From Candidatus Methylomirabilota bacterium (GTDB lineage Bacteria; Verrucomicrobiota; Verrucomicrobiia; Limisphaerales; UBA11358), in contig DASQOZ010000030.1 of assembly GCA_035644195.1 (NCBI GenBank), positions 3,767 to 67,766 on the forward strand: a stretch of 64,000 bases of DNA, given 5' to 3'. Both the position numbers and the translations under genes were made by a program. Under the pieces are notes generated by a model. It saw nothing but the letters and a program-made list of their open reading frames with translations, made no database searches and was not told where the DNA came from. The number at the start of each line of letters is the position of its first letter. Positions within the stretch are counted from its first letter, which is position 1. Positions 1-26,244 of the stretch are shown here, piece by piece.

Positions 1-378
1 CGCCTGCCGCAATGCGATTTCCAGTTGCGGCGGATCCCACGGCTTGGTGATGTATTTGTAAATCGCGCCGCTGTTGACCGCGGCAATCGCCGCGTCCATG
101 TCCGAATAAGCCGTCACGAGAATCCGCAAAATGCGCGGGCGCAATTGCCGCGCTTTTTCCAAAAGCCACACGCCTTTTTCGCCGGGCATCCGCTGGTCGG
201 TCATCAACAGGCCGATTTCTTCGCCGCGCTGCTCGAGTATTTTGAAGCCGTCCCGCGCATTCGCCGCTGTAAATATGCGGAAATCGTCGCCAAAGGCGCG
301 CTCGAAATACTTCAGCGATTGCTCTTCGTCATCCACGTAGAGGATGGCGAATTTTTTGTAGTCGTGGAGATCTTTCAT
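1..378 (-). CDS. Response regulator receiver protein, PhcR/PhcQ-like (partial, runs off window start)
   Basis: Manual translation from ATG at 378: MKDLHDYKKFAILYVDDEEQSLKYF...LLMTDQRMPG...LVTAYSD...YITKPWD, with all receiver motifs. No stop before position 1, so absent from the ORF track. Confidence 0.9.
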   Translation of the reverse strand, partial: MKDLHDYKKFAILYVDDEEQSLKYFERAFGDDFRIFTAANARDGFKILEQRGEEIGLLMTDQRMPGEKGVWLLEKARQLRPRILRILVTAYSDMDAAIAAVNSGAIYKYITKPWDPPQLEIALRQA

Positions 379-383
379 GTCCT

Positions 384-1745
384 TCAGTTCACAGCCTGGT
401 TGATTTTGACCGGAAATTCGAGCGCAAATTCGCAGAATTTTCCCGGTTCCGTCTTCACCGAAATTTTTCCGCCGTATTCCTGCACGATGCTGTAGCAAAT
501 GCTCAGCCCAAGCCCCATGCCTTCGCCCACGTCTTTTGTGGTGAAGAACGGGTCGAAAATTTTGTCCAAATGTTTGGCTTCAATGCCATGGCCGTTGTCG
601 CGGACGGATAAAATGCTTTGGCCATTTTCAATCCGGCCTTCAATCCAGATGGCGGGTTTTTCACCGGGTGCGAAGGATTTGGTCTTCAACGAATCGAGCG
701 AGTTTTGAAAAAGGTTCACCATCACATGGATCAATTTATTTTTATTGGCCAGGATTGTCTGATCCTCCGCATATTTTTGTTCGACTTGCATTGTGTCGCG
801 CCATTCGTTGTTCAAAAATCGCAATGCCGGTGCGACGACTTCAGCCGGCGTCACAGCGTCAAGCTGCTCGGTGTTGGGATGCGTGAACATCCGCAAATCG
901 GAGACAATGGTTTGGACGCGCTTAAGGCCTTTCTCGACATCGGTGAGGACTTCGGTGTAATCCGCCTGCTCTTCCGGCGCGAGATGCTTGCTTTTTTTGC
1001 GCAACGTGAAAAGGCCGGTCATGGCGAAATTCAGCGGATTGTTGATTTCGTGTATGATGCCCGCGCTCATGCGGCCCAGCGACGCCAGTTTTTCGGATTG
1101 CACCAATTGCATTTCATTTTCCTTGAGTTGCTTGAGGCTCGCTTCGAGCGCCTTGCCGCTTTTGTCCAATTCGCAGCGGGAAACGAATTCCCGCATTCGC
1201 ACGCGGCTGTGAAAATAAGTGCCCGCGATGATGGCGATGCTGGAGGACACGAGAAAAAATAAACTGCCTTTGAACAGTCGCCCGTCAAAAGTTGCCTGCG
1301 AAAACAGGCATGCCGCCAGATAAAGGAATAGAACCAGCGCGACCGAAATGACACTTTGCCAGAACGTCCAATCCAGCACGACGGCCAGCACCATCAACAC
1401 CAAAATCAGCCCCGCGTAATAAGGCGACGCCGTTCCTTCGGTCGCATAAACCATCCATGCGATTGTTGCTGAAGGGAGGAAGAGCAAAACGACGCCCTGA
1501 AAATGATAGTGTTTTTTTCCGAAATCTGTTCCCAAAACAAAATAAAGTCCTGCCATCAAAGCTGAACAAACCAATCGCAAAAGGAAAAATGAAAATGCCT
1601 GCTGCGGATAAACGAAATGATCCAAACCGCCAAAGAGCGGCACCATCACAATTCCCAAAAAACATCCCAATCGCGTTTTGCGGATGGTTATTTCGCGGTC
1701 ATACTCCTGCCAGGCGCCCAGAAATTCTTTTGGAATGAATTGCAT
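384..1745 (-). CDS. Membrane sensor histidine kinase, PhcS-like
   Basis: About 5-6 N-terminal hydrophobic segments, H-box SEKLASLGRMSAGIIHEINNP, N box, DNGHG, FDPFFTTK, GMGLGL. Confidence 0.93.
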   Translation of the reverse strand: MQFIPKEFLGAWQEYDREITIRKTRLGCFLGIVMVPLFGGLDHFVYPQQAFSFFLLRLVCSALMAGLYFVLGTDFGKKHYHFQGVVLLFLPSATIAWMVYATEGTASPYYAGLILVLMVLAVVLDWTFWQSVISVALVLFLYLAACLFSQATFDGRLFKGSLFFLVSSSIAIIAGTYFHSRVRMREFVSRCELDKSGKALEASLKQLKENEMQLVQSEKLASLGRMSAGIIHEINNPLNFAMTGLFTLRKKSKHLAPEEQADYTEVLTDVEKGLKRVQTIVSDLRMFTHPNTEQLDAVTPAEVVAPALRFLNNEWRDTMQVEQKYAEDQTILANKNKLIHVMVNLFQNSLDSLKTKSFAPGEKPAIWIEGRIENGQSILSVRDNGHGIEAKHLDKIFDPFFTTKDVGEGMGLGLSICYSIVQEYGGKISVKTEPGKFCEFALEFPVKINQAVN

Positions 1746-1746
1746 A

Positions 1747-3279
1747 TCAGTCCGGTTTGCGGATGTGCAGGAACAGGTTCACGGAGGTTGGTTCTGCGAT
1801 GACACGGGTTGTTTCCCGGCAGCATTCGGGGACGAGCGACAAGATTTCCCGGCTGTCGCGATAAATCAAATGCCAGTCCAAAATGAATTCGATGAAATTG
1901 CGGAACGGTTTCGTGTCGTTCATGTTCGCGATCAACATCAGGCCGCCGGGCGACAGCGAATCATACCAAAGGCCGATCAGCGCGCGGCAAGTGTCCGGCG
2001 CGAGATAATCAAAAAGTCCCGCGCAATAAATCAGGTCGAATTTTTCCGCGCCCGCGCCGTTTTGCCGCGTGCGTTTCAAAAGTTCATACACTGAAATCTG
2101 CCGCGTGCGTATCGGCGTGTGCCGGGAAAATTTGTGCCTGGCTTCGGCCAATTTTCGCCCGGCATGGAGCAAGGTTTCTTCATTGAAATCTATCAAAGTA
2201 AAATCCGCCTGGTTGCTCAAATGGGTTTTAGTTAAAAAATCCTGAACTTCCCTTGCCGGACCGCAGCCGATGTTCAAGATGCGCGCGGATTTTCTTGTGC
2301 GGGCGACGCGCGCCGTTTCGTTGAGGATATTTTCGTGAAGGTGGGCGATGCGGTTGCGGACGGATTTTGCCGGCCACTGGCTGACCAGCAAAAGATGGAT
2401 CAATTTGTCGTAAAGCGAATTTCCCTCCGGCTGGTTCCGATGGATCATGTTCATCATCTCGTAATCGCCCGCATAACCGCCAGGTTTGTGATAAGTGCGA
2501 TGGCCGAAGGGAGAGCTTAAAAATAATTTCTGCCAGTGCCGCCGGACAAAATCCTGGTGCGCCATGCGTGATTCCGGCGACAGCGCGCAAATGATTTCTT
2601 CAAACCGCTCGTGCCGGCCATTGAAGGACTCGATGACTCGCGGCGCGACGGTGTTCAAAATGGCTTGCTCCTGTTCTTGCTTGTCGCCGTGTGTTTTCAG
2701 GCCGAATTCCAATCCCTCAAGCCAATGCCGCACGCCGGTGAGATAAGACTGGACGTCGGCGATCAACACTTTGAATTCCGCCGAAATGCGGTAATTGTTT
2801 TGCCAGCTCTGGAAAAAAGAATTGTAAGCCTCCTGAAGATTGGAAGGAGATTCCGTGGGCGGCAGAAAAAATGCCGTGTCCGAACCGAGATTGTCCAGCT
2901 TGGCCTCGCAAAGGAGCGACGCGCCGGTGTGGATGACATTGCTCACCACGGCGCGCCCGAAATAGATGATGCGGCCGGCGGTGGTGATCTTGAAATTGTT
3001 CAGCACTTCCGAAGTCCGCAGAGTGGTTGCAAGGTGGCTGGCCTCAAAAGTCGCCGCATGGCTTGCCAGTCGCACGAGGCTGGCGCGCAACTCCGCGCCG
3101 CCCGGCGTCTGGAAAGCAACTTCATTTTCAGCAACGGTTTGTGCCGGCGCAACGGCGCGCGATTTGGCCGCCTTTCTTTCAGGCTGGCGGATCGAACTGC
3201 GGCTGTTTTTGATGACAAGGCTCATCCCAAGCCAGAATGAAACATTTTTCACGCCAAAACCAGCCGATTGTTTTTTCAT
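1747..3279 (-). CDS. phcB: SAM-dependent methyltransferase, PhcB-like (fatty-acid methyl ester signal synthase family)
   Basis: KPGGYAGDYEMM segment, SAM motif ILNIGCGPARE, FDLIYCAGLFDYL, C-terminal LDWHLIYR; directly upstream of kinase and regulator as in Ralstonia phcBSR. Confidence 0.7.
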   Translation of the reverse strand: MKKQSAGFGVKNVSFWLGMSLVIKNSRSSIRQPERKAAKSRAVAPAQTVAENEVAFQTPGGAELRASLVRLASHAATFEASHLATTLRTSEVLNNFKITTAGRIIYFGRAVVSNVIHTGASLLCEAKLDNLGSDTAFFLPPTESPSNLQEAYNSFFQSWQNNYRISAEFKVLIADVQSYLTGVRHWLEGLEFGLKTHGDKQEQEQAILNTVAPRVIESFNGRHERFEEIICALSPESRMAHQDFVRRHWQKLFLSSPFGHRTYHKPGGYAGDYEMMNMIHRNQPEGNSLYDKLIHLLLVSQWPAKSVRNRIAHLHENILNETARVARTRKSARILNIGCGPAREVQDFLTKTHLSNQADFTLIDFNEETLLHAGRKLAEARHKFSRHTPIRTRQISVYELLKRTRQNGAGAEKFDLIYCAGLFDYLAPDTCRALIGLWYDSLSPGGLMLIANMNDTKPFRNFIEFILDWHLIYRDSREILSLVPECCRETTRVIAEPTSVNLFLHIRKPD

Positions 3280-3349
3280 TGCTCATCCTCATTCTCAAGA
3301 TGCGAAAATCGAGGGCTAGGATGACGATGAGGACGAGAAGGAAACAGTA

Positions 3350-4204
3350 TTATGCCAACGCATCGAACTTCTGCAAGATGGCCGAGAGCGTGGCGTTGAA
3401 TGTCGCAGGTTGCTCGAGCATGAGAAAATGTCCCACGCCCTCCATCATCACATAATCCGATTGCGGCGCGAGTGAGCGGACATAGTTTTCGTAACCAGCA
3501 TTCCACCACGGGCTTCGGGCGTTGATGGCGGCGACGGGCGCGTTGACCTTCTGCAAAATCCAATCAGGCTGGTCTGCGCCGAACATTCCCAGCATCGCGC
3601 CGAACATGACGTGTTGCGGCGTGGCGAGCATTTCGGACATCACGCGGTCGCGCAACGTTTCGGAGCCGGGAACGGGAAAAAAAGTGCTGATGAATCCTTT
3701 GGCGTGATCGAGATATTGCGGCGAGCCGAATGGCGCAACCAACGCTCTGGCTTGTTCGGCCGTGCCGGGAGGGCGGCACAGCAAGCCGTCCACGGAAACC
3801 AGAGCGGCAATTTTTTCCGGCGCGCGATGGTGAACGCGGCAGATGACCGCTCCGCCCATGCTGTGGCCGATGAAGGTGGCCTTGTCCACATTTTCGGCGT
3901 TCAACACGGCGAGCACTGCATCGGCGAAAAAATCCATCGTGTAGGCCGTTTGCGGTTTGTCGCTCTGGCCGTGGCCGGGAAGGTCAATGAAAATAAGCCG
4001 CGCCTTGTCTGCCAGCGCCGAAACCTGTTCGCGCCAGAAACCGAGATTGCCTGCCCAGCAGTGGACAAAGACGATTGTGCGATTCCCTTTGCCTGCGGTG
4101 ACGTAATGGATGCGGTTCGCACCAAGCGAAACAAAATGAGATTCTCCGTCAGCCATGCCTGCGGAGCAGCCGTTTGCGCCCATGTTGGAATTCCCATTTC
4201 TCAT
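3350..4204 (-). CDS. Alpha/beta fold hydrolase
   Basis: VFVHCWAG, DLPGHGQS, nucleophile GHSMG, C-terminal GHFLMLEQP; start uncertain (ORF open to 4249). Confidence 0.9.
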   Translation of the reverse strand: MRNGNSNMGANGCSAGMADGESHFVSLGANRIHYVTAGKGNRTIVFVHCWAGNLGFWREQVSALADKARLIFIDLPGHGQSDKPQTAYTMDFFADAVLAVLNAENVDKATFIGHSMGGAVICRVHHRAPEKIAALVSVDGLLCRPPGTAEQARALVAPFGSPQYLDHAKGFISTFFPVPGSETLRDRVMSEMLATPQHVMFGAMLGMFGADQPDWILQKVNAPVAAINARSPWWNAGYENYVRSLAPQSDYVMMEGVGHFLMLEQPATFNATLSAILQKFDALA

Positions 4205-4286
4205 TGCTATTAACCGCACGATACTACGCAGACGGGTCAGCGTCCGCAAACAGTTAGTTGCAGGAATTTAGAAATGTAACAATGGA

Positions 4287-5687
4287 TTAAAAATGAATTC
4301 CCACTGTCAGCATCAAGGCGTTGCTATGAAAACCATATTTGCCGTCGGCAGATTGTCCGGCGGAAAGGCCGGGAGTTGACGATGGCTTGCTGCCGGTGAC
4401 CGTATGCGTTGGACCATAGCCGAATTGATAGGTGATATCAAAATCAAAAGTTTTTCCATCGCGTCCGGCTCCGGCGCTGAAGAACTGGCGGTCCATGTCC
4501 GCCGCCAGTGGAGTGTAAAATTGATTTGGCACCGAGTTCTCGTTGAAAACGTAGCCGCCGCTGACGTGCCAGCCACTGTCAAAATATCGCGTCACGCCGA
4601 ATTCATACATCCAACTCGCCTGCCAATCGAGTGTCAAAGGGGGATTTTGTGGCCCTCCTAGCGGAGCAGTTCCAGATTGAAAGATAGTTGTTTTTCCAAA
4701 GCTACTCCAATCTGTATAGTTGGCATCGAATTCCAGATTCCATTTTGACGTGGGCCGATATGAAACGCCAAAAACAGCGGTCAATGGAAAGGTGAAGTTG
4801 GCATGTGCGGGCAATGACGTATCCGATATGCCTGCTGAAAATTGTTCGAATTCTGTGTGACCATTCAAAGTGACAGTTGCCGAACTGCGGAAGTTCGCGC
4901 CGATTGAAATTTGATCAATCGGTTGCCAAAGCACGCCCACATTACCGCCCACGCTCCAGCCGTCGCCTTTAAAATCGAAAAAATTGGTGTTGGGCGGTAG
5001 ATAAAATGGACGAAGACCTTGCTTTATATTCATGTTTACATAATTCACCATCGCGCCGCCGCCGATTGACAATGAATCCAATATCTTCACAGCAGCCACC
5101 GGATTGATGGTGATGTATTTCAACGAACCGCTCGTGGCGACTGTGCGAAAGCCCGTGTCCTGCGGCCATCTCATGCTTCCGCCGAACGGCGCATAAACAC
5201 CTAGGCCAAAGCTCAATGGCAAATTTGTCGGCGCATAAGCGTAAAAAAACTGGGGAACTGCGGCAAAATGATCCGAGCTGTGATAAGTCTTGCCGCTATT
5301 TGGAACACCACTCGGAGGACGGAAACTGGAGTCGAGGTCAATCGCATAAATGCCCGCGCGAAAATTATTATCCACGAGTTGAGCGATGCCCGCCGGATTA
5401 TAGTAAATAGCTGCGGCATTATCGGCAGTGGCTACGAACGCCTCTCCACGCGCAGTCGCAAAAGCATCCTGATCTGGAAGAGCGAAGCCGTTTGCAAAAA
5501 CATTTCCGGCCCAAATTCCCGAAACCAGAACCGTCGGCAAAAATTTCGATATGAAACCTTTGCAAAATATTTGCAGTGGCGGTCTGCGACCGCCGTCTGC
5601 TTTTGAAAACGCAAAAATTCGGCGGTCGCAGACCGCCGCTGCAATTTCAAATGAACCTTTTACGGTCTTTATGTTCCATTTGTTCAT
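4287..5687 (-). CDS. fadL: OmpP1/FadL/TodX family outer-membrane long-chain fatty acid transporter
   Basis: NGFAL...ARGEAFVATADNAAAIYYNPAG, GLGVYAPFG, terminal Phe; signal n-region lengthened by an in-frame element. Confidence 0.88.
   Translation of the reverse strand: MNKWNIKTVKGSFEIAAAVCDRRIFAFSKADGGRRPPLQIFCKGFISKFLPTVLVSGIWAGNVFANGFALPDQDAFATARGEAFVATADNAAAIYYNPAGIAQLVDNNFRAGIYAIDLDSSFRPPSGVPNSGKTYHSSDHFAAVPQFFYAYAPTNLPLSFGLGVYAPFGGSMRWPQDTGFRTVATSGSLKYITINPVAAVKILDSLSIGGGAMVNYVNMNIKQGLRPFYLPPNTNFFDFKGDGWSVGGNVGVLWQPIDQISIGANFRSSATVTLNGHTEFEQFSAGISDTSLPAHANFTFPLTAVFGVSYRPTSKWNLEFDANYTDWSSFGKTTIFQSGTAPLGGPQNPPLTLDWQASWMYEFGVTRYFDSGWHVSGGYVFNENSVPNQFYTPLAADMDRQFFSAGAGRDGKTFDFDITYQFGYGPTHTVTGSKPSSTPGLSAGQSADGKYGFHSNALMLTVGIHF
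5553..5669. mobile_element. 117-bp MITE-like element with internal REP doublet, in frame in the fadL signal region
   Basis: Ends GAAACCTTTGCAAAA...GGTCTT, flanked by TAT direct repeats (5550-5552, 5670-5672); internal GGCGGTCTGCGACCGCC/GGCGGTCGCAGACCGCC palindromes; related copy at 26124-26244. Confidence 0.7.
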
Positions 5688-5872
5688 AACGGGTTCCGGC
5701 AATCTGAACGGACGCTGACTGTGCGGCAGCTTACCTGTCGAACAGCCTCCTGCCAGCAAATTTCTTGCGCCGACCAATGCAGATGACCGATTCAGACAAA
5801 AAATGGGCGGCATTTGGCAAAAAACTCATTTTGCTCTCTTTACTTTTTTCCGACATAAGATAAGCTCTCGAC

Positions 5873-7123
5873 GTGAAAAATTTTATTCAGAAGTTATCTC
5901 GATTGACAGTTGTTGTTTTGTTGTTCGGCTCGGTTCTTCCAACGCGGGCCGCTTTCACGTCGCTATATGTTTTTGGTGATGGCATTTCCACTACGACCAA
6001 CAATCCGTCTGCTGGACAATATTACTACGGTCTGCGTCGCTCCAATGGCCGGGTTTGGGCTGAAGTGTTGGCGCAACGATTAGGTCTGGGTGCCAATTCC
6101 ATCACTAATGCCAATTGGTCCAACTCAAGCAACAATTGGTCTTATTATGGTCAATACAGTCCCAATCTGGTAACAAACCTCAATAGTTTTCATACACCAT
6201 CGGATGCAGCCAACGCATTGTTTATCGTATGGGTCAACAATGCCGACTTTGTCGGTGACATGGGAAATATTTACCCTTCTTTAAACATAGTCACGTGGAC
6301 CAATGCTATTAATCAATCTTTGAACAACCACTGGCGAGTCATTACAAATCTATATTACGCCAAAGGCGCTCGCACTTTGATCATGCCGAAGGCCGTGGAT
6401 ATCACCGAGACTCCGCAATACGATTATTACCCTGCGGCCAGTAAAAGCTTCATCCGCCAAAGGGTCATTGATTTCAATGTTGCTTTCACCACTCTCATAA
6501 ATCAGGCAAGAACATCACTGCCCGGTATTACGATTTACGAACCGGACTTTTTCGCGTTACTTGACGATGTATTGGTGCACGCTTCCAATTATGGATTGAC
6601 CAATGTCCTCTCCAGCGGACAAAGCATTGATGTGCTGGAAGATTCACTGGCAAACAAGTCTTTGAATGGACCGGGTGCGAACTACATTTTTTGGGATGCG
6701 GTAGACCCGAGTGCAAAACTTCATGAGGTGATGGCTGATGTCGCGCAGCAAATCATTTCGCCGGTGCAAATCGCCCAAATCACAGCGCTGGCCGGCAGCA
6801 ACCGGCTTAATCTGGCAAATGTGCCGGTCGGCCTGAATGGTTCCGTGGAAGGCTCTACAAATCTGGCACTGGCAAATTGGACAGCTATAACCGTGACCAA
6901 CGGCGGGACAGCCAACATCGTTACTATCACCAGCGCCAATACAGCACAATTTGTTTTTGTCCCAACTCCTCCCAGCTGGGGTGTTGACACCAACAACATT
7001 GTCGTCAGCGCCAACAGTGGCAGCACTGGCGGCGGAATTGCGCCGGGGCCGGGCGGAACTGTTGTTGTCACCGCACTGCAATTTTATCGGCTGCGCTTTC
7101 CTTACGCCTGGGTTTGGCCGTGA
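5873..7123 (+). CDS. Secreted SGNH/GDSL-fold protein, probably catalytically inactive, with C-terminal FYR-ending domain
   Basis: Signal peptide; FGDGIS in place of GDSL; RSNGRVW; WDAVDPS in place of DxxHP; ends QFYRLRFP. Confidence 0.8.
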   Translation: MKNFIQKLSRLTVVVLLFGSVLPTRAAFTSLYVFGDGISTTTNNPSAGQYYYGLRRSNGRVWAEVLAQRLGLGANSITNANWSNSSNNWSYYGQYSPNLVTNLNSFHTPSDAANALFIVWVNNADFVGDMGNIYPSLNIVTWTNAINQSLNNHWRVITNLYYAKGARTLIMPKAVDITETPQYDYYPAASKSFIRQRVIDFNVAFTTLINQARTSLPGITIYEPDFFALLDDVLVHASNYGLTNVLSSGQSIDVLEDSLANKSLNGPGANYIFWDAVDPSAKLHEVMADVAQQIISPVQIAQITALAGSNRLNLANVPVGLNGSVEGSTNLALANWTAITVTNGGTANIVTITSANTAQFVFVPTPPSWGVDTNNIVVSANSGSTGGGIAPGPGGTVVVTALQFYRLRFPYAWVWP

Positions 7124-8302: not shown

Positions 8303-9772
8303 ATGACCGACGACAAATTGAACACCGGCCAGAAGGCGCTCCAGATCAACGTGGACGCAAAAAAATACGGCACGTTCGCCGAGATCGGCGCGGGTCAGGA
8401 AGTCGCGGGCTGGTTTTTTCACGTCGGCAAGGCGTCCGGCACCGTGGCCAAGACCATTTCCGCCTACGACATGGCCGTGAGCGACGCGATTTACGGCACG
8501 GCGGAGCGTTATGTCAGCCGCAAGCGTCTTCAGGCGATGCTGGATTACGAATTCAAGCTGTTGATCGAGCGGCTCGACAAGGCGCGCGGCGACAAATGCA
8601 CATTCTTCGTTTTCGCCGACACCGTCACCACGCGGCGCGACGAAGGCCACGGATGGCTCGGCATGAAATTCCAGACGCAGCCGCACGAAGCGCCGTCGCA
8701 AATCATCATCCATGTGCGGATGATCGAGAAACAGAGCCTCCGCCAGCAGGAGGCTCTTGGCATCATCGGTGTCAATCTGATCCACGCCGGATTTTATCAT
8801 TTCAACGAGCCGGAAAAAATCATCACGTCGCTCATGGACGACCTCACGCGCGAGCGCATCGAGGTGGACATGATCAAATTTTCCGGTCCGCGTTTTGCGC
8901 ATGTGGACAATCGCCTGATGAGCCTGCAACTCGTGCAGCAACAACTTTCCGACGCCGCCATGTTCACCGCCGATGGAGAAGTTGTCATCCCCGGCGAAGT
9001 GCTTTACCAAAAATCCGTGCTTGTCGAGCGCGGCAGTTTCCGGCCCATCACCAAAACCACGCTCGACATTTTGGAGCGCGCGCGCGAACAATTTTTGCGC
9101 GAACCGCAGATGAAAGGCGAAGAGCCGGTCATCCTCATGGAAATGACGTTGCACAGCGTGCTCGAAGATTCCACGATGGCGCACAGGGATTTTCTCGACC
9201 GCGTGGATTTGTTGAGCACGCTCGGCAAGACCGTTTTGATTTCCAACTTTGGCCGTTACTATCGCCTCGTTGAATATCTTTCGCATTACACGCAAAAAAT
9301 GCAGGGCATCGCCCTGGGCATCCCGAGTTTGCGCGGCATTTTCGATGAAAAATTTTATGCCGACCTGCCCGGCGGATTGCTCGAATCACTTGGCCGCCTT
9401 TTCAAAGGCACGACCAAGCTTTACGTTTATCCATTCCGCGATCCTGCGCCCGGAAAATTTTCCGACACGCCGCGCGGCGAAAGCGGCATTTGGATGCGCG
9501 AGGCGGCCAACGGGCAGATTGTCACCGCAGAAAACCTTCAAGTCGCGCCGCACCTGCGCCATCTTTACGCGCACTTGCTCCAAAACGGCTACATCACCGG
9601 CATCGAGAATTACAATCCCGACTATCTTTCGCTCTTTCCGCCCTTCGTGCTGTCAAAGCTTCAATCCGGCGATGCCTCATGGGAAAACGACGTGCCGGCT
9701 GCGATTGTCGAAAGTATCAAGCGCGGGAAAATGTTTGGCTGGCAGGAAAAACCGGTCGCGGTGACCGCATAA
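8303..9772 (+). CDS. Conserved protein with degenerate nucleotidyltransferase-like C-terminal half (function unclear)
   Basis: YGTFAEIGAGQEV N-terminus; RGSFRPIT resembles the GxF-x-P lead-in of HIGH-family adenylyltransferases. Confidence 0.65.
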   Translation: MTDDKLNTGQKALQINVDAKKYGTFAEIGAGQEVAGWFFHVGKASGTVAKTISAYDMAVSDAIYGTAERYVSRKRLQAMLDYEFKLLIERLDKARGDKCTFFVFADTVTTRRDEGHGWLGMKFQTQPHEAPSQIIIHVRMIEKQSLRQQEALGIIGVNLIHAGFYHFNEPEKIITSLMDDLTRERIEVDMIKFSGPRFAHVDNRLMSLQLVQQQLSDAAMFTADGEVVIPGEVLYQKSVLVERGSFRPITKTTLDILERAREQFLREPQMKGEEPVILMEMTLHSVLEDSTMAHRDFLDRVDLLSTLGKTVLISNFGRYYRLVEYLSHYTQKMQGIALGIPSLRGIFDEKFYADLPGGLLESLGRLFKGTTKLYVYPFRDPAPGKFSDTPRGESGIWMREAANGQIVTAENLQVAPHLRHLYAHLLQNGYITGIENYNPDYLSLFPPFVLSKLQSGDASWENDVPAAIVESIKRGKMFGWQEKPVAVTA

Positions 9773-12128: not shown

Positions 12129-12614
12129 TCATTCTCCGGCAAGTTGCAGAACTTGAAGGCGCAAATCCGATGAAACCCAAAAATTCGCTTCGCGCTCCAA
12201 ACGTTCCAATAAAATTTTGACGCTGGAAATTAATTTGTCATTTTTTGCGTCGGTTAATATGCCCAAAATTCCGACCGTGCGAACGCCCAATCTGATTGCA
12301 ACTTTTCGGCCGATTTTTTCATCAATCAATAGCGCGTCCGCTCTTTGTTTCAAAAACAGAGCGATGGCCGCAGCTTCGCCTGCGTCCAGTTCCACTTCGA
12401 CGGCTTCGACCGGATACGACTTTGGCGCAGATAAAATTTCAATCCAATCCGGCAAAACCAAACCGGAAAATCGTTTTTGAACTTTTGTCAGATGGACGAA
12501 TTCATCGGCCACTTCCGTTGGAATCAAAACGCGATGGAAAAGTTGTTGCAGCAAATGTTCGTGCTGAATGCGGCACAAGTTCAGAATGACCGAGGTGTCA
12601 GCGACGACAATCAT
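12129..12614 (-). CDS. DUF3368 PIN-like toxin
   Basis: VVADTS, LDAGEAAAI, LLIDE..GR, GILGIL. Confidence 0.85.
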   Translation of the reverse strand: MIVVADTSVILNLCRIQHEHLLQQLFHRVLIPTEVADEFVHLTKVQKRFSGLVLPDWIEILSAPKSYPVEAVEVELDAGEAAAIALFLKQRADALLIDEKIGRKVAIRLGVRTVGILGILTDAKNDKLISSVKILLERLEREANFWVSSDLRLQVLQLAGE

Positions 12615-12850
12615 CGCTTTTTAAGTTCGCGAAGCTCCCGAATCGTGCGCATGTCCTGTTCCAAATCGTCAACGTCGTAATGTTGCGGAATCTGTCGTTC
12701 CTTTAACAAGCCTTGAAATTCAAAAAAACCGATGTCCGCAATATGCACTGCCTGGATAATTGTGACTTTGCATGCGGCATAAAGCGACAGCGCGAGTTCC
12801 TGTTTCAACTCGCTCTCGCTAAATTTTGTTTCCGGCAATGTGAGCGTCAT
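12611..12850 (-). CDS. UPF0175 family antitoxin
   Basis: ELALSLY, EFQGLLKERQIP, YDVDDLEQD; 4-nt overlap with the toxin. Confidence 0.85.
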   Translation of the reverse strand: MTLTLPETKFSESELKQELALSLYAACKVTIIQAVHIADIGFFEFQGLLKERQIPQHYDVDDLEQDMRTIRELRELKKR

Positions 12851-26123: not shown

Positions 26124-26244
26124 GAGACATCGGCAAAACCCGTTTTTATTTGTGGCGGCGGTCTGTGACCGCCGTGGTTTTGCTGAAATTTCAGTATCCG
26201 TCGGCGCTCGCAGAGCGCCGCTGCAGTTGTTTTGCAGAGGTTTC
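26124..26244. mobile_element. MITE-like element with REP doublet, between pilW-like and pilX-like genes
   Basis: GAGACATCGGCAAAA...TTTTGCAGAGGTTTC ends; internal GGCGGTCTGTGACCGCC; related to 5553-5669. Confidence 0.65.

Follow-up and report, generated by a model that had tools for sequence, protein, structure and literature searches.

A probable Phc-type signalling locus with a likely exchangeable synthase and sensor in a member of the Verrucomicrobiota

Does a member of the Verrucomicrobiota carry a lipid-signalling system of the Phc type, and which of the neighboring genes belong to it? To our knowledge, Phc signalling has been characterized only in Ralstonia and Cupriavidus. We analyzed a stretch of 64,000 nucleotides (nt), here called the window (G000:C30:3767–67766, where G000 is the code for this genome, which is 89% complete). 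A sequence-only reading of six open reading frames (ORFs) at its left end had proposed a complete module that makes, imports, senses, and destroys a lipid signal. All six ORFs are intact, lie on the strands first described, and match Pfam families: Toluene_X (FadL), Abhydrolase_1, Methyltransf_12/25, HisKA with HATPase_c, Response_reg, and Lipase_GDSL. The proposed verrucomicrobial host was supported, as the window's ribosomal proteins L27 and L21 fall into clusters whose members are labeled Verrucomicrobiae or Verrucomicrobiota; the order is, we think, Limisphaerales (Pedosphaerales). Judging from genes alone, we consider it probable that this is a Phc-type cell-to-cell signalling locus, in which synthase and sensor form an exchangeable specificity cassette and the signal is unlike that of Ralstonia. 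In the available part of a published survey that covered Proteobacteria only (as does its Table S5), the phc cluster is restricted to Betaproteobacteria (PMC10653808). We found no literature linking phcB or the methyl ester of 3-hydroxypalmitic acid (3-OH-PAME) to Verrucomicrobia, most subscription papers and supplements being outside the search.

Reciprocal best matches with Ralstonia sp. R-29 and Cupriavidus necator A5-1 were obtained for both synthase and sensor. The predicted synthase is a 510-aa PhcB orthologue (1747–3279, minus strand) with a PilZ-like N-terminal barrel, a helical middle, and a class I S-adenosylmethionine (SAM) methyltransferase domain; an alternative start is possible at Met19. 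It is the best match of PhcB from the two strains among all G000 ORFs (31% and 27%, respectively), and in the reverse search it found phcB as its sole match in four of four betaproteobacterial genomes. Our betaproteobacterial reference set comprises the best 80 of 593 confirmed loci from a scan of named genomes; phc gene labels in these loci were assigned by order and size, and strains of the R. solanacearum complex are not among them. The sizes of PhcB, PhcR, and PhcQ given in the available part of a published report match these four-gene loci (PMC8578825). Close homologues of the window protein bear the JGI name "3-hydroxypalmitic acid methyl ester biosynthesis protein", an automatic label. 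The predicted PhcB model (pLDDT 88, pTM 0.85) has an N-terminal barrel that resembles PilZ models (TM 0.73), a likeness that comes from structure search alone, with Pfam calling PilZ in 0 of 92 PhcB sequences; the cyclic di-GMP motifs of PilZ are not evident in the barrel. Sequence searches found no solved relative of PhcB, and Foldseek returned generic class I methyltransferases only (top match 3ocj/NodS). Weak CheR Pfam matches occur in 48 of the 92 members.

The SAM-binding motifs of the window PhcB are intact, and its allele class is divergent. Across 92 PhcB sequences (11 betaproteobacterial, 71 other, and 10 of its own class), 52 positions are kept. Members of its own class share substitutions at positions otherwise fixed: AHRNR becomes SVRNR (S306, and V307 for His), together with H295, M276, A451, and M453. 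The product of the window PhcB may thus differ from the Ralstonia type. Because PhcB differs at otherwise conserved positions, no PhcA is evident, and the third gene is not a plain PhcR, it would be unsafe to suppose that the signal is again the 3-hydroxy methyl ester. Distant PhcB relatives (P0186, P0263, P0290, P0298–P0300, and P0305) are 590 to 800 aa long, with long N-terminal extensions, and a type I polyketide synthase (PKS) on an Enterobacter ludwigii plasmid (L265:9733–12870, NZ_CP134637.1) terminates in a domain that shares 30% identity with the methyltransferase half of PhcB.

Directly downstream lies a 453-aa PhcS orthologue (384–1745, minus strand) with six predicted membrane helices, a HisKA domain, and an HATPase domain. 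The gaps of 1 nt (1746) and 5 nt (379–383) reported among methyltransferase, kinase, and receiver genes were verified. PhcS of Ralstonia sp. R-29 and C. necator A5-1 has the window kinase as its best match among G000 ORFs (35% and 33%; 33–36% overall), and the window kinase has phcS as its top match in four of four betaproteobacterial genomes. Its H-box is intact, and His232 is the candidate phosphorylated residue; the available part of a report on PhcS places the phospho-His at H230 (PMC11960443). A by-eye count over 90 loci gave about 55 in which PhcS is instead a protein of about 900 aa (membrane domain-HisKA-HATPase-REC-HisKA-HATPase; e.g. L037:6581–9298). The shorter PhcS that the window has turns up again in many branches.

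The third gene had been described as a receiver. Its first 126 aa do form a receiver domain (1–378 of the window, minus strand), and the whole gene encodes a 420-aa PhcQ/PhcR-like REC-HisKA-HATPase protein that runs on to G000:C30:2882, ending 884 nt left of the window. It is the best G000 match both of PhcQ (38–47% over 170–240 aa) and of PhcR (27–30%, full length). A tree built from the first 200 aa places it with PhcQ (97/94), and grouping with PhcR was not rejected (p-AU 0.47). Identification as PhcR was not upheld, given this placement, and identification as PhcQ is likewise unproven by the same test. Separate phcR and phcQ genes do not follow phcS; a single relay gene stands there instead. 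The N and G2 boxes of its HATPase domain look degenerate against the box consensus. After it, still left of the window, comes a 680-aa REC-GAF-PAS-HisKA-HATPase kinase. In Ralstonia, PhcQ is described, in the available parts of two reports, as the main relay, which binds PhcA (PMC8578825; PMC13320629). Two of the four LysR genes in G000 gave generic matches of 27–33% in Ralstonia and Cupriavidus, a comparison made within this 89% complete genome and not using the PhcA sequence itself. Since this similarity is generic, the output of the phosphorelay here is probably not PhcA.

That the sensor reads the product of the synthase is best supported, we infer, by the way the two proteins diverge together. 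Among 20 loci of the genus, PhcB proteins are 34–82% alike, with a median of 42%. The corresponding medians are 40% for the PhcS sensor, 60% for the PhcS kinase core, 70% for the relay, 72% for the next kinase, and 81% for AroF. The partial rank correlation between PhcB and sensor, given the relay, is 0.69 across 16 genus loci (reached in 0 of 500 permutations), and that between PhcB and kinase core is 0.20 (31 of 500). At the level of the order, with 77 loci, PhcB correlates with the sensor at 0.39 (0 of 500 permutations) and with the kinase core at 0.19. The break is visible between locus L044 and the window, whose PhcS proteins are 34–50% identical, rising to 76–96% from about residue 200. 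As a positive control, 11 Ralstonia loci split alike but more mildly (PhcB 75%, sensor 48%, kinase 92%, PhcQ 93%), and Ralstonia PhcB and PhcS are described, in the available part of the source, as grouping by signal type (PMC7694676). The reciprocal best matches, the order of the genes, and the joint divergence of synthase and sensor support the proposed making and sensing arms as predicted functions.

We then asked how far the locus and its neighbors extend. PhcB was matched in 30 of 41 relatives (one of them marginally) and in 19 of 24 other genomes of the genus. A draw of 151 genomes of the order gave matches in 95, of which 93 are full length or nearly so after removal of G105 and G149, and the locus was fetched from all 93. 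In a draw across the phylum, 7 of 300 genomes have PhcB, 6 of them full length. Within the order, phcS follows phcB in 89 of the 93 genomes and the relay in 86. A porin lies within 6 kb upstream of phcB in 66 of 93 (71%): FadL in 56, OprB in 10, and both in none; 9 of the 93 loci have less than 3 kb of contig upstream of phcB. FadL is nearly single copy in the order draw (140 genes in 107 of 151 genomes of about 2–9 Mb), and its linkage to phcB is far above chance. The phcB-linked FadLs form two deep clades about 25% alike, occurring in both orientations, and mapping porin class onto the PhcB tree requires at least 19 changes. Outside the order, FadL is linked to phcB in 3 of 6 loci. The porin is thus a conserved part of the locus, and the import arm of the sequence-only reading stands to that extent, its direction and cargo being predicted only. 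Of the accessory neighbors, fadL is the one often linked to phcB across the order (56 of 93 phcB genomes); linkage is weak for the hydrolase (3 of 93) and for the SGNH gene (6 of 93).

The window fadL (4287–5687, minus strand) encodes an outer-membrane barrel of the FadL/TodX family, from the clade that pairs with an SGNH pseudo-enzyme. It scores above the Pfam cut-off for Toluene_X, carries the N-terminal NPA hatch motif, and has FadL, CymD, TbuX, and TodX as its best solved relatives; NCBIfam matches to PorV/PorQ and BamG are sub-threshold. It is the sole FadL detected in G000.

An enzyme adjoins the porin in 43 of the 93 order loci, and its identity varies. The slot holds an SDR in 18 loci, a PapA-like acyltransferase in 9, a second hydrolase plus DUF2156 in 10 (always with OprB), an epimerase in 3, an EthD protein in 3, and the window-type hydrolase in 3, plus one distant cross-hit; a desaturase appears once, within the genus. 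The variant with OprB, second hydrolase, and DUF2156 (LPG_synthase_C) was noted at L055, L176, L189, L199, L212, L224, L229, L275, L276, L283, and L284, and at L055 the hydrolase is fused to DUF2156. Outside the order, four of six loci have a KS-AT-DH-ER-KR-ACP PKS directly upstream of phcB, and FadL adjoins the PKS in three. These are type I PKSs of about 2,090 aa (L246:1549–7827, L247:8608–14610, L249:2031–8294, and L250:2267–8539); no thioesterase was found in them, and two separate receiver genes follow phcS. There, PhcB may cap a polyketide chain. Because the PKS and the tRNA-dependent transferase are biosynthetic, the data suggest that the slot enzyme often shapes the signal; the SDRs and hydrolases could equally inactivate it. 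Of the 93 order loci, 14 also have a metallophosphoesterase and a short PAS kinase on the upstream side of the porin (among them L176, L183, L186–L189, L208, L214, L223, and L227).

In the window, this slot is occupied by an alpha/beta hydrolase (3350–4204, minus strand, starting at 4204 or 4183) with a GHSMG nucleophile elbow and a C-terminal His; of the catalytic residues, Ser and His were identified. Its best solved relative is the esterase 5EGN (E 3.5e-21; the likeness is family-level), tied in the available part of the source to the quorum-quenching Est816, which degrades acyl-homoserine lactones (PMC5133562). Close homologues occur in 6 of the 151 order genomes, 3 of them linked to phcB, all of one genus; in G090, G049, and G080 the gene is unlinked. 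The linked genus copies, in 7 of 23 loci, lie directly between fadL and phcB, in both orientations, and nowhere else in the order draw does the hydrolase adjoin phcB, so the destroying arm is not supported as a general part of the system. By inspection, the homologues of G011, G049, and G080 carry a lipoprotein or export signal, which is eroded in most linked hydrolases and not clear in the window copy. The ratio of nonsynonymous to synonymous substitution rates (dN/dS) is 0.21–0.33. The hydrolase accompanies two PhcB classes just 37–42% alike, a finding that disfavors a role in allele-specific tailoring. It likely serves in broad cytoplasmic ester turnover or precursor supply, and a function as dedicated quencher is unproven.

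Divergent from fadL is a secreted-type SGNH/GDSL pseudo-hydrolase (5873–7123, plus strand), which had been called a dead lipase. Its catalytic residues are indeed lost (GDSL Ser to Gly, DxxH His to Asp), but the gene is not decaying. Of 22 homologues, 3 have the block I Ser, 1 has the block V His, and none has both, while ORF, signal peptide, and fold are all retained and six pairwise comparisons indicate purifying selection (dN/dS about 0.12–0.24). The kept ORF and these ratios rule out a decaying pseudogene. Fifteen of 28 SGNH matches in the order draw stand head-to-head with one FadL clade, 9 of the 15 away from phcB. The SGNH protein therefore appears partnered with FadL more than with phcB, and we regard it as a conserved, presumably exported pseudo-enzyme that may capture lipid. 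Its C-terminal beta domain ends in FYRL...WxWP. About eleven long G000 ORFs (on contigs C5, C13, C30, C59, C61, C75, C77, C83, and C85) have a comparable beta domain at their C-terminus, bearing a [FY]YR[LVI] motif, and the FYRL-type tail is a possible export or sorting signal of the lineage. A tandem duplication of the SGNH gene was seen in G001 (L033:12218–14672).

A sigma-54-type −24/−12 box stands 5′ of 34 of 66 fadL genes; shuffled sequences gave 2.7 and the reverse strand 2, and among other ORFs the box precedes 44 of 1117. It also stands 5′ of 3 of 7 oprB genes (0.3 in shuffles), and no enrichment was found upstream of phcB, SGNH, SDR, acyltransferase, aroF, or the downstream kinase. 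G000 encodes rpoN and four activator motifs; scans for sigma-70 promoters and terminators gave chance levels. In the window, the position of the box (5726–5740, minus strand) reads GA in place of the −24 GG. Moreover, a palindromic genomic repeat (5571–5644, no strand assigned; hairpin of −36.9 kcal/mol) lies in frame within the signal-peptide region of fadL. It has 20 BLASTN matches on 16 G000 contigs; a further copy of this GC-rich repeat lies near window positions 26150–26240. The mutated box and the repeat inside fadL suggest that the accessory arm is eroded in G000 and may be poorly expressed. In G090, hydrolase, fadL, SGNH, and aroF share one contig and phcB, phcS, and relay another, which indicates that the accessory arm is separable from the core.

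Several observations count against a Phc-type locus with a matched synthase, sensor, and porin. Block recombination of adjacent DNA alone is expected to make phcB and the 5′ part of phcS co-vary; because linkage by itself gives co-variation, the weight rests on the position of the break, and kinase cores in general change more slowly than membrane domains. Our counts include related genomes, which are not independent, and are descriptions rather than tests. Identity to the characterized type is just about 30%, the Ralstonia sequences come from species other than the biochemically studied strains, and the own-class PhcB substitutions could mean another substrate or lower activity. As to the porin, 27 of 93 loci have none within 6 kb, FadL occurs without phcB in 22 genomes of the order draw, and FadL stands at 1 of the best 80 of 593 betaproteobacterial loci. 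The sigma-54 pattern was fixed after inspection of the data, and the window's own box is the mutated one described above. The betaproteobacterial exception is Methylotenera (L098:14950–16317), with fadL directly after phcQ.

These points bear on four other explanations. In one, phcB, phcS, and the relay signal alone, and fadL, hydrolase, and SGNH form a module of their own, for lipid scavenging or at the surface, that adjoins the trio by descent only. The two contigs of G090, the 9 SGNH-fadL pairs away from phcB, the broken box and inserted repeat, and five loci that hold a window-type FadL plus a second FadL nearer phcB all fit such a module. The FadL clade that partners SGNH is nested among phcB-adjacent FadLs, however (in a set of sequences weighted towards those loci), porins unrelated to each other alternate at one site, linkage recurs in half of the loci outside the order, and the window FadL is the only one G000 has; on balance we find this explanation rather improbable. 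We think it unlikely that the locus is, as first proposed, a complete module for making, importing, sensing, and destroying the Ralstonia signals 3-OH-PAME or 3-hydroxymyristic acid methyl ester (3-OH-MAME) with the hydrolase as dedicated quencher. The intact elbow and His, 5EGN as top solved relative with its tie to Est816, the position between fadL and phcB, and the dN/dS values agree with quenching, as does service to two distant PhcB classes, which a broad turnover enzyme might give. Set against these are linkage in 3 of 93 order loci within one genus, the three unlinked genomes, the export signal that is clear in G011, G049, and G080 but not here, a likeness to 5EGN that extends to the family level, and, for the Ralstonia signals, the divergent PhcB allele.

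Signalling itself could be questioned if the substrate of the methyltransferase lay inside the cell or in a membrane (a lipid or, as for CheR, a protein) and the cue read by the kinase were unrelated. The CheR matches, a PilZ-like domain that suggests regulation by protein contact, the occurrence of the methyltransferase domain inside a plasmid type I PKS, and the lack of an evident PhcA point that way. Orthology over the full length and shared gene order with an operon proven to signal, the joint divergence of synthase and sensor, and neighbors that are small-molecule enzymes and porins make it, in our judgment, quite unlikely. Least likely of all, and by our estimate highly improbable, is that the FadL-family barrel is no lipid channel and instead an export or assembly factor (PorV- or BamG-like) for SGNH and other FYRL-tailed proteins. 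Although that role would suit the sub-threshold PorV/PorQ and BamG matches, and also the strict head-to-head arrangement with the gene of a secreted protein that shares its C-terminal motif with other long G000 ORFs, the best solved relatives are FadL, CymD, TbuX, and TodX, a carbohydrate-type porin replaces the barrel in 10 genomes, and most phcB-linked FadLs have no SGNH partner.

Under the Phc-type signalling that we favor, PhcB would methylate a lipid-like acid, and the membrane domain of the co-encoded PhcS would sense the product. The synthase varies in step with the sensor domain, with kinase core and relay following the genome, and the alleles may correspond to signal types. Phosphoryl groups would pass from PhcS His232 to the PhcQ/PhcR-like receiver and from there to the hybrid kinase encoded downstream. 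Because a sigma-54-type box precedes roughly half of the linked fadL genes, the output may be a sigma-54 activator rather than PhcA. The porin, FadL or OprB, would pass the hydrophobic signal across the outer membrane, probably inwards to PhcS, and hydrolase and SGNH would be optional accessories of one FadL clade, SGNH being likely an exported lipid-binding protein. A wider and more tentative reading, to which we give some credence but would not lean on, is that the whole order, with its swappable PhcB, PhcS sensor, dedicated porin, and tailoring enzyme, uses an undescribed family of methyl-ester signals, with sigma-54-driven feedback on the porin and a dead SGNH protein capturing lipid for FadL. 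The tailoring enzymes in that wider reading would be reductase, desaturase, acyltransferase, tRNA-dependent transferase, and hydrolase, with a PKS outside the order.

Two further features of the window lie to the right of these genes. A 489-aa protein without Pfam match (8303–9772, plus strand), divergent from aroF, is kept (58–63%) in many genus loci. At 12129–12850 (minus strand), two small overlapping ORFs of 79 and 161 aa resemble a PIN-type toxin-antitoxin pair.

Roughly 60% of the genomes drawn from this order of Verrucomicrobiota, which is large and for the most part uncultured, have the phc locus, and for the order we found no such quorum-sensing system in the literature searched. These bacteria likely signal in many private lipid "dialects", to judge by their sequences. 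Their allele diversity is a ready panel of single-gene synthases that could show how PhcB picks its acyl chain and yield new signals. The panel could also test whether soil Verrucomicrobia cross-talk with, or disturb, the Phc signalling of plant-associated bacteria. The conserved pair of dead SGNH protein and FadL is an unexplained outer-membrane module.

How does this locus compare with known systems? The window FadL shares the Toluene_X profile, NPA hatch motif, and PDB matches of the FadL, TodX, TbuX, and CymD channels, but is coupled to a signal synthase and sensor rather than to a catabolic operon, with cargo that is predicted only. The SGNH protein shares fold and flanking motifs with the GDSL lipases PlaA (Legionella), Vibrio thermolabile haemolysin, ChoE, and EstA, yet lacks the paired catalytic Ser and His (0 of 22) and has an extra C-terminal beta domain. 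Like Est816, with 5EGN as top PDB match, the hydrolase is a serine hydrolase, a family-level likeness only. The Ideonella 3-OH-PAME hydrolase, compared by its description in the available part of the source, is also a serine hydrolase, but was purified from supernatant, whereas the window enzyme has no clear export signal (PMC10349395).

The closest parallels to the exchangeable cassette are peptide systems and Phc itself. The comQXP pherotypes of Bacillus, in the available part of the source, pair a polymorphic synthase and receptor at a fixed locus (PMC4408185). Those systems use peptide signals and distinguish strains of Gram-positive bacteria, whereas here a predicted lipid signal, a porin, and tailoring enzymes vary among species of a genus. 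The agr groups of staphylococci likewise have a polymorphic synthase and receptor at a fixed locus, and in both comQXP and agr the break falls between the sensor and kinase parts. If our interpretation is true, the verrucomicrobial locus is a lipid-based counterpart of peptide pherotypes. Like Phc of Ralstonia, it has PhcB and PhcS orthologues in the same order, then a receiver of the PhcR/PhcQ family, and its synthase and sensor co-diverge. It differs in having one 420-aa relay rather than PhcR plus PhcQ, no evident PhcA, a downstream hybrid kinase, a porin and variable enzyme slot upstream, and, in relatives, often a double-kinase PhcS of about 900 aa. The locus would thus work like Phc signalling, with one relay gene and with three additions, namely a porin, an enzyme slot of varying content, and allele exchange that runs deep, the divergence of alleles within a genus being far deeper here than in Ralstonia (42% versus 69–89%).

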